Positions 9,651 to 54,897 are shown, counted from the first letter of the stretch. The stretch: 64,000 nucleotides of DNA from a virus (IMGVR_UViG_648276708_000003), one strand, 5' to 3'. A program made the numbers and translations. Notes: generated by a model not told the origin, from the sequence alone.

Positions 9651-10184
9651 ATGTACTGGGAGTCAGAAAGACTACTTTACAGACCAGTAATTATGTCCGA
9701 CGTGGAAGCACTGTTTCGCATATACGGTGACGAAAGAACGCACGCGTTTAACCCAAGAGGTCCACATCGGGACATCGAGCAAAGTCGTAGTGTTATCCTT
9801 CAGCGAACCGCAAACCGCGAGCTGTACGGGTTTGACGACTGGGCTGTCTCTGAAAAGACGGCTCCAGAAAGGATCATTGGATTTGGAGGCGTATTTGTCA
9901 GTCAGTTTAATGGCCGACGAACCAACAATCTGGGCTACCGGCTTGAACCAGAATCATGGGGGAAGGGTTATGCAACTGAACTTTCCTGTCGCGCTTTGAT
10001 ATATGGATTTGACGAGCTAAAACTGCCTGAAATTGTCGAAGTGACACGCGAAAATCATATCGCCTCTCGCCGCGTTCTCGAAAAAGCAGGTTTGCTGTTT
10101 ACCCAAAGGGTGGATAATCCTGAAGACCCACCGGCTAACCTGATGTTCACTCTGAGTATCGAGCAATGGAGGAGGTTAAAATGA
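9651..10184 (+). CDS. RimJ/RimL-type GNAT N-acetyltransferase
   Basis: ERLLYRP, LGYRL..E.WGKGYATE, N.AS.RVLEKAG; ATG 9651 follows GGAGGAG. Confidence 0.85.
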   Translation: MYWESERLLYRPVIMSDVEALFRIYGDERTHAFNPRGPHRDIEQSRSVILQRTANRELYGFDDWAVSEKTAPERIIGFGGVFVSQFNGRRTNNLGYRLEPESWGKGYATELSCRALIYGFDELKLPEIVEVTRENHIASRRVLEKAGLLFTQRVDNPEDPPANLMFTLSIEQWRRLK

Positions 10185-52249: not shown

Positions 52250-52930
52250 TTAGCCTCGATTAGTCGCCCCTTCTGCCGGGGTGTATTGTTGATAGACGTC
52301 AGTGAAATACTCATTACAGAATCCCAGCGCGCAATCCATTTCCTGTAACACCGTCAGCGCATCAAGTGGGCTTCCGTCATATTCAAACAGTGAGAACTCA
52401 TACGGCAGCGTAAACCGGGCTGCCGTGATGTACACCATAAACGGCAGGTTATACTCTTCGGCCTTTTCGCCCATGATCATTGTCCACTCAAACGCGAACT
52501 GATATTCGCCTTCTGTGTCTGTCATGGTGGCAGTGCCGGTAACGGTATCTTTAGTCTGTGCAGTTACCACGATCTGCTGAGGGTCCCACCAGTCCAGCTC
52601 AAACATATTGCTGAGCGTCATTCTGTGCGCCGGTGCAGTACCCGGACGCCAGCCTGATTTGAGAATGAAGTCGATGTGATCGCGGTCGGCCAAGTTGATC
52701 TCTTCAAATGTGTGTTCATCACCAATGTAACCAAAGCAGATGTGATTACGCAGCCAGACAACGGTCGCCAGGTCTGTGCAGCTGGTGGCCACCAGCTCGT
52801 AATTGGTTTTGATATCTGCGTAGGCTTCCGCCTCGTTAAAGTCAGGCTGCTGACTCTGTTTAATTACGCCGGTCAGGGTGTAAGACATGTGCTGGAGCGC
52901 AGCGGTGGCAGTCATTGGAGAGGTATTCAT
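52250..52930 (-). CDS. Hypothetical protein
   Basis: 226 aa, first gene of leftward operon. Confidence 0.7.
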   Translation of the reverse strand: MNTSPMTATAALQHMSYTLTGVIKQSQQPDFNEAEAYADIKTNYELVATSCTDLATVVWLRNHICFGYIGDEHTFEEINLADRDHIDFILKSGWRPGTAPAHRMTLSNMFELDWWDPQQIVVTAQTKDTVTGTATMTDTEGEYQFAFEWTMIMGEKAEEYNLPFMVYITAARFTLPYEFSLFEYDGSPLDALTVLQEMDCALGFCNEYFTDVYQQYTPAEGATNRG

Positions 52931-53156
52931 TGCATAGTTCCTTAATGCCTGGAGCCGCCAGGGCGGTGACGCCTGAGTAACGCCATGAGATGAAATATAC
53001 AGGTGGTGATTTTGATTGTCAATACAAGCAAAAAGACATATTATCTTTTGACCGATAGACGATAAATTAATGCCTCATTGGGGAAGGGTTTTTGTATGTA
53101 GCAGATATAGCATGTAGTAAAATCTAAGCATCTTATCCGTAAAGGAAGACAATGAA

Positions 53157-53621
53157 ATGGCAATAAATTTTGCTCCAAAAGTGGGCCAAATCCTTACCTG
53201 TAATTATGGAAATTATTTGAAAGATGAAAATGGGGATATCATTACAAATGCTGTCGATGCGCATATCCCACCGGAAATGATAAAATATCGGCTTGTAGTC
53301 GTTCTAAATGGTCGTCTTAATGGTAATGCTTGTATAGTGGTTCCAATCAGTACAACAAAGGATCAGTCTAAGCTGATACAGGGCCTTCACGTTGAATTGG
53401 AAGAAGGTATTATCAACGAAGCAAAATATTTCCCGCAAACTACAAGCTGGGTTAAGTGTGACATGATACAGACGGTCAGCAACATTCGCCTGAATCGCCC
53501 TATGGATTTAGGTAGAGGATGGGTTACTCAAACATTGTCACGCGAAATTGTCACCAAACTGCAAAAGGCTGTTATCAAAGCAATCAATGCAACGGCTTTG
53601 ACCCAACCACAAGCTATCTAA
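53157..53621 (+). CDS. PemK/MazF-family (YifN-like) toxin, no adjacent cognate antitoxin
   Basis: P..GQIL.C.Y, PPEM.K.R.VVVL, C.VVPIST, W.KCDMIQTVS..RL. Confidence 0.8.
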   Translation: MAINFAPKVGQILTCNYGNYLKDENGDIITNAVDAHIPPEMIKYRLVVVLNGRLNGNACIVVPISTTKDQSKLIQGLHVELEEGIINEAKYFPQTTSWVKCDMIQTVSNIRLNRPMDLGRGWVTQTLSREIVTKLQKAVIKAINATALTQPQAI

Positions 53622-53861
53622 GAACCAAGTGAGCTCTCCTGGAAGAGCTGCCACTATGTGACTTTCCAGTATTGACATAAATCTGTTTTCAGATAAGATA
53701 TCAGTGTTGCCCATAGAGGCCATTCAGATTTTCTCCCCTTGAGGGACCGCGAAGCCCAGCTGAAAAGCTGGGCTTCTGCACATCAGTAGCTTCGTAAAAT
53801 CATGCAATTCCGTAACGTCATCCGCTGATGCACTAATGAATAATTAGGAGGAAGTGCGATT

Positions 53862-54038
53862 ATGCTGAGATACACCCTACCGATTGAAGACGAAGCAGAG
53901 TTTCTTGCTTACCTTGAAAATAATATCAGTACACATTCAGAGAACATTATCCCGGTATCTGTAGCTTACTGGGAAAGGATTAAGGCGTTAACTGCTGGTG
54001 TGGAAGTCGATTTAGACGCTCCACTGACTGACGACTGA
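53862..54038 (+). CDS. PrlF/SohA antitoxin C-terminal-domain-like peptide (58 aa)
   Basis: AEFLAYLE..I......WERIKALTAGVEVDLDAPL.DD; AGGAGG RBS; no AbrB domain. Confidence 0.6.
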   Translation: MLRYTLPIEDEAEFLAYLENNISTHSENIIPVSVAYWERIKALTAGVEVDLDAPLTDD

Positions 54039-54059
54039 CAGCACGTAAGGTGGCTTAAC

Positions 54060-54227
54060 ATGGCAACACTGAAAGAATTGATGGACGGACTTTCACCCGA
54101 AGCCCGTGAGAGAGTTGAAGCCCGTGCGGCTGAACTCAGTAAAGAAATTGCAGAGCATGAAACTGATGAAATGCGCCAGCTCAAAGAGTCTTATGACCTG
54201 GCGGAACGTTCAGGCACTAAGCATTAA
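54060..54227 (+). CDS. HigA-type antitoxin N-terminal-segment-like peptide (55 aa)
   Basis: MATLKELMDGLSPEARERVEARAAEL; no HTH follows. Confidence 0.55.
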   Translation: MATLKELMDGLSPEARERVEARAAELSKEIAEHETDEMRQLKESYDLAERSGTKH

Positions 54228-54245
54228 CGCAAAGTGCTTCGGCAG

Positions 54246-54533
54246 TCAGGATACCTGAATTAGCTGTTTCACCTCACTAATCGTCTCTTCGGCCCAGTCA
54301 CGATCGAAACCCGGCATAGTGTCAAATGCACCAGCTATATCAGCCGGAATTGGGTCGATATACTCCAGCCCCGCCTTTGCCACCTCCACCAGCTCCGAAC
54401 CGGACCGGCGTAGTGCCAGCAGCTCTCTGGCCATCATCTGCGCCAGCGCGTGATTGGGCGCAAACACCAGGTTGTTTTGCGGTTCAGCGGCGAATATTTC
54501 CAGCTCTTTATCCGTCACGCGATCGTTGATCAT
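54246..54533 (-). CDS. Ead/Ea22-like hypothetical protein
   Basis: VTD.ELE, MARELLALR motif. Confidence 0.65.
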   Translation of the reverse strand: MINDRVTDKELEIFAAEPQNNLVFAPNHALAQMMARELLALRRSGSELVEVAKAGLEYIDPIPADIAGAFDTMPGFDRDWAEETISEVKQLIQVS

Positions 54534-54543
54534 TGCGCTTTCC

Positions 54544-54897
54544 TCAGCTCTCAGTGGCGATCATGTTTATTGCGGGCTCAAAGTCTGCAGGCACGGTATG
54601 CCCTTCTATGAATGCCAGGCGCATAGCGATGTTATGACGGCCGCGGGACAGCAAAAACGCCACAGCGCCGGCGCAGTGCGCCTCCTTCCCGGACGGGCTG
54701 TAACCCCCGCCGTCTTCGTCCTCTTCTTCGCCAGTGTGGTGCGTCGTTTTGTGGCAGTAGAACGATGAGTAGTCGTCTCGCAACAGGTGCGCTTTGATGC
54801 CCTCAAGACGTCCGGGATTCAGCTCGATGCCACCAGCTTTCAGGAACGGACAGTTAGCGCATGGCGCTTTGAGGCGGAAGAATTTGCGCAGGTTCAT
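54544..54897 (-). CDS. Cys-rich hypothetical protein
   Basis: PCANCPF, F.CHKT, HCAGA. Confidence 0.75.
   Translation of the reverse strand: MNLRKFFRLKAPCANCPFLKAGGIELNPGRLEGIKAHLLRDDYSSFYCHKTTHHTGEEEDEDGGGYSPSGKEAHCAGAVAFLLSRGRHNIAMRLAFIEGHTVPADFEPAINMIATES

Follow-up and report, generated by a model that had tools for sequence, protein, structure and literature searches.

The 64-kb window analysed here, i.e. the whole 64,000-nucleotide stretch of the viral record IMGVR_UViG_648276708_000003, is a P1/D6-like phage-plasmid by gene content and carries two short adjacent open reading frames, ORF1 (58 aa) and ORF2 (55 aa). A preceding sequence-only reading had proposed that both derive from antitoxins stripped of their DNA-binding domains; the two frames lie where that reading had placed them, and the AGGAGG site and the peptide ends which it had quoted are correct. 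According to our analysis, ORF1 corresponds to the C-terminal half of the antitoxin PrlF, and the first 30 residues of ORF2 correspond to the N-terminal arm of a HigA-type antitoxin, followed by a tail from another gene. ORF1, a short spacer and the arm of ORF2 together form a recombining cassette which, as indicated by the comparison of diverged copies, is conserved under purifying selection. The positions of these and the surrounding features are compiled in Table 1.

Table 1. Features of the ORF1/ORF2 locus and its surroundings, given as positions in the window.
Feature	Position	Strand	Basis or remark
ORF1, 58 aa, mini-PrlF (stand-alone PrlF C-terminal domain)	53862..54038	+	PF15937, PrlF identity, structure model
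Shine-Dalgarno sequence AGGAGG of ORF1	53846..53851	+	10 nt 5' of ATG; from prlF Gly-Gly codons
ORF2, 55 aa	54060..54227	+	
Shine-Dalgarno-like sequence AAGGTGG of ORF2	54047..54053	+	6 nt 5' of ATG, read from sequence
ORF2 codons 1-30, N-terminal toxin-binding arm of a HigA-type XRE antitoxin	54060..54149	+	tblastn, alignment with five full-length HigAs
ORF2 codons 31-55, tail from unrelated small gene X	54150..54227	+	77-81% DNA identity to gene X in L045, L048, L049, L050
Two-gene recombining cassette: leader, ORF1, 21-nt spacer, first 30 ORF2 codons	53794..54149	+	DNA homology borders
Accessory insert in cargo hot-spot	53033..54261	.	Between 226-aa gene (52250-52930, minus) and 95-aa gene (54246-54533, minus)
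Flanking 95-aa gene, right border of the slot	54246..54533	-	Without family; homologues beside the slot in G002, G419:C4, G420:C9
PemK/MazF-family toxin-like gene, 154 aa, separate neighbouring module	53157..53621	+	PF02452 3.5e-14; phrog_15698 2e-59
Sigma-70-like promoter TTGACA-16-TAAGAT	53672..53699	+	10/12 consensus positions, best match of the region
Conserved 76-nt RNA-like element, GC-rich terminal hairpin 53751-53776	53704..53780	+	95-96% identical in 70 plasmids

ORF1 is matched by the Pfam family PF15937 (PrlF_antitoxin) with 36.2 bits at a gathering score of 32, the match spanning only positions 54-99 of the 99 model positions, and with the same 36.2 bits it stays far below the cut-off of 125 of the NCBIfam PrlF equivalog NF007429. 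Residues 11-58 share 57-66% identity with full-length PrlFs of 112-120 aa, and the PrlFs similar to ORF1 are encoded directly 5' of yhaV in every case looked up; with such YhaV-paired PrlFs, the identity amounts to 60-66%. An invariant acidic tail, G-V-E-V-D-L-D-x-P-L, is common to ORF1 and these PrlFs; the final 16-20 residues of ORF1 are exactly those of YhaV-paired PrlFs at a DNA identity of just 81-84% in this part. Over the last 30 codons, the ratio of nonsynonymous to synonymous differences (pN/pS) between ORF1 and full-length prlF amounts to 0.15-0.20 (p <= 2e-6), with pN at about 0.14 and the synonymous sites near saturation. The N-terminal DNA-binding and dimerisation domain of the AbrB/SpoVT type (MazE-like) is absent from ORF1, and its AlphaFold model comprises two helices (residues 8-24 and 34-43) and an extended acidic tail, without a DNA-binding fold. 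The resemblance to the PrlF C-terminus claimed from the sequence alone is thus well founded. A sequence search of the PDB with ORF1 returned chance matches only.

The beginning of ORF1 can be traced within prlF as well. Homology to prlF extends 15 nt, or five codons, 5' of the ATG of ORF1, where the in-frame translation reads GGSAIM as compared to GGKVIM in PrlF. Since the homology reaches past the ATG, the Shine-Dalgarno sequence of ORF1 was recruited from the Gly-Gly codons of PrlF, and its start is the internal Met55 of PrlF. In the two cassette-bearing relatives L012 and L017, the equivalent of Met55 is now Ile, and a new ATG is located two codons upstream with a good spacer and in the same frame. 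A start codon which has shifted while the frame was kept is the behaviour of a translated gene. Directly 3' of ORF1 there is no yhaV; the next gene is ORF2, which has no similarity to YhaV, and a YhaV fragment as the origin of ORF2 was ruled out on the same grounds. A yhaV deletion scar at this position was similarly ruled out because the homology to the prlF operon ends at the stop codon of ORF1.

HigA relatives of ORF2 were obtained by per-genome six-frame searches, first of 401 Enterobacterales genomes and subsequently of 75 from the nearest genus (E 1e-5 to 3e-6). These relatives are XRE-type proteins of 99-103 aa with helix-turn-helix (HTH) domains of the HTH_3/HTH_37 families, and each of the genes overlaps the 3' end of a gene for a Gp49 (PF05973) toxin of the RelE superfamily, which corresponds to the toxin-first order of HigBA systems. 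Searching the window by tblastn with the HigA of L019 yielded residues 1-30 of ORF2 at 63% identity (E 2e-7), and the arm shares 63-67% identity with the N-terminal 30 residues of five full-length HigAs encoded 3' of Gp49 toxins. The full-length relatives can be aligned with M. tuberculosis HigA2 (7EWC) from one end to the other, and matches to HigA3 and S. pneumoniae HigA were obtained as well. Toxin binding has been assigned to the N-terminal arm of HigA (PMC8420761, PMC8438204), and peptides comprising residues 3-23 or 3-33 of V. cholerae HigA2 bind HigB2 approximately as tightly as the whole antitoxin (PMC8438204). The previously suggested likeness of the ORF2 start to this arm therefore holds for the first 30 residues only: profile scans of ORF2 against Pfam and NCBIfam gave no match to an HTH family, and the beta-lid is absent as well. 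The upstream neighbour of ORF2 is ORF1 and not a higB or Gp49 gene.

Homology to higA ends at codon 30 of ORF2, and the remainder corresponds to the small gene X. Judged by these homologies, ORF2 is a chimera produced by illegitimate recombination, its two parts being fused in frame at a short microhomology. The tail differs between copies, as L006 has another tail with about six more higA-like codons and L017 yet another. Gene X itself (about 45-57 aa; conserved core AERKAEAMRQLKESFDLAERSGT) was observed in chromosomes of the nearest genus beside an oxidoreductase gene (L045, L048, L050), and also in the phage-plasmid-like contig L049; in one element it occupies the cargo slot. With respect to its family, there is only a weak hint to DUF5486 (E 0.01-0.1). 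Database-wide searches with ORF2 were unsuccessful because its informative part is just 30 residues long: phmmer against 1.84 billion representatives found only ORF2 itself and a 45-aa relative, tblastn against phages and plasmids gave nothing useful, and a PDB sequence search returned chance matches only and detected no similarity to V. cholerae HigA2. The predicted models of both ORF1 and ORF2 are helices without a globular fold, and Foldseek searches of the PDB with these models returned nothing at E <= 0.001, as expected for two-helix fragments. Look-alikes of ORF2 in the ESM Atlas, which serve as leads only, are short proteins without a name (0.93) and clusters of the HTH_3/HTH_37 type (0.79-0.87).

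The two fragments travel together. The cassette has a length of about 340 bp; its left border lies at 53794 in comparison with L012 or at 53816 in comparison with L017, and at its right border the homology with L006 and L017 stops at 54148-54150, the exact start of the homology to gene X. The spacer between ORF1 and the arm is homologous among copies and comprises 21-26 nt. The unit of ORF1, spacer and arm occurs in four contexts, namely the window together with L006, L012, L017, and the alleles P0032/P0034, and is followed by different sequence each time. In the window and L006-L011 it is placed behind the PemK-like gene and the 76-nt RNA-like element, in L012 directly behind the 226-aa gene and followed by parDE, and in the Pantoea plasmid pPSP-26e (L017) behind a 187-aa gene. 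The cassette borders carry inverted repeats (53803-53816 / 54139-54152, 79% complementary), which were considered no better than expected by chance.

This family of phage-plasmids has a hot-spot for toxin-antitoxin cargo, which lies between the 226-aa gene and the 95-aa and 117-aa genes. In G002, the nearest virus record, the slot holds no cargo, window position ~53032 being joined to ~54262 with about 40 nt between (G002:C1 ~9831-9871), and a larger deletion is present in G001, which lacks 53033-54532 (G001:C12 ~65800-65818). As cargo, relatives carry a full higBA and a 269-aa gene (G419:C4), gene X (G420:C9), parDE (L012), a VapB-like gene (L017) or a 185-187-aa gene; in L090, the slot is occupied by a 69-aa, more PrlF-like variant of ORF1 without ORF2 and without PemK. 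The sequence-only reading had looked to relatives for full-length operons with deletion scars at this place. A complete higBA does reside at the site in G419:C4, but ORF2 did not arise from its higA by recent deletion, given that the arm is just 67% identical and DNA similarity to ORF2 is undetectable, and no yhaV scar follows ORF1.

Selection was assessed mainly by comparing the window with L017, the two most diverged truncated copies. For the arm of ORF2, pS is 0.63 and pN 0.12, resulting in a ratio of 0.20 (p = 5e-6), and for ORF1 and the arm concatenated pN/pS is 0.33 (p = 6e-5). Not a single frameshift or stop was found in the four cassette contexts at a DNA divergence of up to 22%; in neutral simulations at the divergence between the window and L017, both frames and starts were kept in only 7%. 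What genuine debris of prlF looks like can be seen in E. coli pEC422_1 (L018 2501-2590), an unannotated 30-codon 3' remnant that is 80% identical to residues 29-58 of ORF1. This remnant is present in about 109 similar records of large IncHI1B/IncFIB plasmids from Klebsiella and E. coli, at two places each, between transposase genes of the IS200/IS605 type.

Reduced PrlFs are not confined to this family of elements. A profile search identified many proteins of 50-70 aa consisting of the PrlF C-terminus (PrlF-C) only, and some of the genes (55-69 aa) reside in other contigs of phage-plasmid size that also carry umuDC or ParM genes; these alleles were truncated independently. Two short proteins starting at PrlF Met55 (P0022 and P0026) were left out of the counts; they are probably cut gene calls, as their source contigs measure only 514-916 nt. 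Stand-alone PrlF-C genes also occur in the lytic jumbo phages GAP32, Kaldavass and XbC2 and in metagenomic relatives, where the gene follows a tRNA gene and has a pN/pS of 0.16-0.30. The 102-aa annotation in XbC2 overlaps the tRNA gene, and its start is probably miscalled. In the jumbo phage CBB and an IMG/VR relative, PrlF-C forms the C-terminal end of a 158-159-aa protein (L031 2677-3153; L033 2680-3153). The N-terminal part of this CBB-type fusion, an unrelated domain of about 105 aa, has a paralogue in the next gene (L033 3140-3661). Species-representative bacterial genomes contained full-length PrlFs only.

Toxins of the appropriate kind are absent from the window itself and available around it. 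As had been noted before, neither YhaV nor HigB is encoded nearby: tblastn revealed no YhaV or Gp49/HigB homologue in the 64 kb, the sole weak match (E 0.009) being antisense within a 217-aa gene. Among the 75 species genomes of the nearest genus, YhaV is present in 10-11 and Gp49 toxins in 57-58, the latter often in several copies, and in 4 of 10 PrlFs of this genus the final 16 residues are those of ORF1. Pairs of prlF and yhaV with the closest similarity to ORF1 are found also in leading regions of F-type plasmids of Enterobacter and Citrobacter (L029, L030), beside anti-restriction genes. The surroundings in L029 and L030, which further include an orphan vapB and genes of the DUF1380 and DUF4942 families, look like a leading-region anti-defence island. 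For the second toxin family, higBA occupies the very same slot in a sibling phage-plasmid (G419:C4).

The reading that we favour, with a probability of roughly 0.55, is that the locus represents a two-gene cassette of orphan antitoxin fragments, reduced to their toxin-binding parts, that silence toxins of the YhaV and Gp49/HigB types; binding, expression and benefit we infer from sequence. According to this model, the C-terminal 47 residues of PrlF would be produced as ORF1 from the internal Met55 codon, and ORF2 would present a 30-residue HigA arm on an arbitrary helical tail. ORF1 would bind YhaV-type toxins, and ORF2 Gp49/HigB-type toxins of the RelE superfamily, in both cases directly and in trans, the toxins being made by the host chromosome, by resident plasmids or by a sibling phage-plasmid. 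Bound toxins would then stay inactive once their cognate labile antitoxins run out, for example during infection or induction. The outcome would be a block on abortive infection based on toxin-antitoxin systems, and likewise a block on post-segregational killing when a competing plasmid with an addiction module is lost, i.e. anti-addiction. Lacking DNA-binding domains, the fragments would not be expected to act as operator-bound repressors. More tentatively, and with odds that fall slightly short of even, it might be hypothesized that mini-antitoxins, type II antitoxins cut back to the segment that binds the toxin, form a class of their own in phages and phage-plasmids of Enterobacterales, arranged in tandem and exchanged as cassettes, and would be directed against RelE-superfamily toxins (YhaV, Gp49/HigB), with PrlF-C as a widespread phage family that extends to lytic jumbo phages; separately, the PemK-like gene and the 76-nt RNA could be an undescribed module of a toxin and its RNA partner.

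A number of points weigh against this proposal. Antitoxins and toxins usually form specific pairs, and the arm of ORF2 is just 63-67% identical to the sampled host HigAs. YhaV was not found in the nearest genome compared, G001. The C-terminus of PrlF is taken as the part that would bind YhaV by analogy with MazE/AbrB-type antitoxins and from its conservation, and a search of the PDB by sequence for a solved PrlF-YhaV homologue found none. ORF2 is a recombinant whose tail varies between copies, and since the slot turns over toxin-antitoxin cargo, fragments are to be expected here by chance. Within the clade, ORF1 alone gave ratios of 0.39-0.6 that are not significant (p > 0.1) at low power. Furthermore, the synonymous divergence between the window and L017 reaches 0.63 in the arm as compared to just 0.22 in ORF1, which suggests gene conversion, so that the constraint may partly date from a full-length ancestor.

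Several of these points would equally be accounted for if the two frames were functionless debris left by recombination from prlF-yhaV and higBA operons formerly present in the slot, open only because they are short and young, an explanation that we regard as unlikely. It would fit the varied toxin-antitoxin cargo of the slot (higBA in G419:C4, parDE in L012, a VapB-like gene in L017, PemK in the window), the fusion of ORF2 at a microhomology with its variable tails, the lack of significance in the comparisons of ORF1 alone within the clade, and the existence of true prlF 3' remnants between insertion sequence copies on large IncHI1B plasmids. It is, however, hard to reconcile with pN/pS values of 0.20 (arm) and 0.33 (cassette) that were obtained between two copies which are both truncated, with start codons and Shine-Dalgarno sites that were kept at shifted positions, and with the integrity of both frames in four contexts against a neutral expectation of 7%. 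In addition, the four cut points all coincide with borders of domains, neither toxin has been kept, and PrlF-C genes that were truncated independently are conserved in other phage-plasmids and in lytic jumbo phages. Purifying selection, the shifted starts, the four intact contexts and the short forms in other phages thus uphold that part of the sequence-only reading which had preferred function over debris. Its term "purpose-built", in contrast, is an overstatement, because the ORF2 tail stems from another gene and the locus is a hot-spot where a relative carries the full higBA; ORF1 and ORF2 are salvaged and then retained fragments.

Other functions appear considerably less probable than debris. 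As protease decoys, unstructured antitoxin-like peptides might occupy or modulate Lon/ClpP and thereby stabilise many host antitoxins or alter Lon; this idea, which we consider improbable, draws on the reported activation of Lon by ectopic prlF expression and by the prlF1 allele (PMC5408214) and on the two models being helices without a globular fold, but the Lon effect was reported for full-length PrlF, and the strongest conservation of the fragments lies in the motifs common to toxin-paired antitoxins. Nearly the same low likelihood, or marginally lower, is given to a role as toxin activators or regulators, in which the fragments would displace full-length antitoxin or shift the toxin:antitoxin ratio at the operator and so unleash the system of a rival element. 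Peptides mimicking interface helices of HigA and HigB indeed disrupt S. pneumoniae HigBA and release active HigB (PMC7984235), and the parts needed for dimerisation, DNA binding and thus normal autoregulation are missing from both fragments. Each of them nevertheless retains the entire conserved toxin-contacting segment rather than a sub-helix, the arm of V. cholerae HigA2 alone binds with full affinity (PMC8438204), and killing its own host would be harmful to a temperate phage-plasmid. Very improbable, finally, is that ORF1 and ORF2 are the protein antitoxins of the upstream PemK/MazF-like toxin in a toxin-first operon. The genes are adjacent on the same strand with one promoter between them, and PrlF and MazE both belong to the AbrB-type family (PMC5408214). 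However, the PemK-like gene is directly followed by the 76-nt element in 2/2 plasmids examined, one of them without ORF1/ORF2 behind it, and the element occurs in 70 plasmids; conversely, the cassette or the ORF1 variant is found without PemK in L012, L017 and L090, and the tail of ORF1 is identical to that of YhaV-paired PrlFs, not MazE.

Toxin-antitoxin systems serve both as defences against phages and as addiction devices of plasmids. To our knowledge, the proven phage countermeasures are few, comprising Dmd, pseudo-ToxI and DarG-like enzymes, and orphan antitoxins of type II are hard to recognise. Compared with PrlF-YhaV of E. coli K-12 (PF15937/PF11663; PMC5408214), ORF1 is homologous to residues ~55-111/114 of PrlF, but it lacks the N-terminal AbrB/SpoVT-type domain and a following yhaV, would not autoregulate by DNA binding, and resides on a phage-plasmid. 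Similarly, residues 1-30 of ORF2 align with the arm of relatives of the HigA2-type antitoxins (7EWC; V. cholerae HigA2-HigB2, 5JAA; S. pneumoniae HigBA, 6AF3/6AF4), which in contrast to ORF2 possess an HTH, a beta-lid dimer interface and an upstream toxin, while the second half of ORF2 comes from another gene. A toxin-less, antitoxin-derived gene on a mobile element, presumably directed at a toxin from elsewhere, has precedents in the T4-like NADAR directed against DarTG1 (PMC11825919) and the ICP1 antitoxin mimic directed against DarTG (PMC11481870); these proven cases, however, are enzymatic type IV antitoxins, whereas type II binding segments are present here. The orphan antitoxins of plasmid leading regions (PMC11541004) are full-length type II proteins with a role that is only proposed, as opposed to the reduced segments in tandem of this locus. 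With the chromosomal anti-addiction modules (PMC11825919) the cassette would share the principle of a trans-acting antitoxin that guards the cell against the toxin of another replicon, but here the protecting genes, without DNA-binding domains, are part of the invading or competing element. As far as the sequence can tell, what is new with respect to known counter-defence is the reduction of two type II antitoxins to their binding segments, in tandem and on a phage-plasmid, together with the existence of a related jumbo phage family. If the favoured reading is true, a cheap route to counter-defence would consist in stealing an antitoxin, keeping its toxin-binding segment and dropping its DNA-binding domain. 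PrlF-C-only genes would then provide a sequence signature for spotting such phage genes, one that would also reach lytic jumbo phages considered for the biocontrol of plant-associated Enterobacterales.

The PemK/MazF-like gene directly upstream of the locus and the 76-nt element had escaped the sequence-only reading. The PemK-like protein of the window shares 83% identity with plasmid homologues annotated as PemK/MazF toxin, and its gene is missing from the cassette-bearing relatives L012 and L017. No antitoxin gene is located upstream of it. The 76-nt element, present in 70 enterobacterial plasmids, IncX4 and others, folds with -32.1 kcal/mol (z = -3.0) and has no match among Rfam families. 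On the plasmids, the TTGACA motif and its spacing are conserved 5' of the element. The promoter at 53672-53699, downstream of which the sequence-only reading had placed ORF1 and ORF2, is indeed present; yet it belongs first to the module of PemK and RNA, because the conserved element follows it directly and lies behind PemK-like genes on plasmids. Plasmid copies of the element continue with TTTTGCATTT after the stem, and the copy in the window has lost the T-run; no terminator was called in the window. As the hairpin of the window lacks a T-run, read-through into ORF1 and ORF2 is possible. From its conservation and position, the 76-nt RNA could be the partner, as an antitoxin or a regulator, of an undescribed PemK-like toxin module. 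Eleven nucleotides at the start of the element (53701-53711) are perfectly complementary to the start codon region of ORF2 (54062-54072); plasmid copies differ at 2-3 of these 11 positions, and the complementarity is probably due to chance, as it mostly lies upstream of the expected transcription start.

The P1-type features of the window comprise a C4 antisense RNA, a P1-type tail fibre, a DarA-like gene, portal, PmgS and PacA/B-like terminase genes, and umuDC-like and Rep genes are located close to the ORF1/ORF2 locus. A megablast search of the ORF1/ORF2 region against phage records gave no match. The host of the phage-plasmid is probably Pantoea; among named sequences, the cassette has its closest relatives in a plasmid of Pantoea sp. 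PSNIH1 and a Pantoea eucrina protein, and near-identical DNA is present in metagenomes from root, rhizosphere, phyllosphere and food. Next to the flanking 95-aa gene, the 117-aa protein encoded at 54544-54897 (minus strand) matches phrog_5443 (7e-22) and displays Cys-rich motifs and a weak hint to DUF6283.

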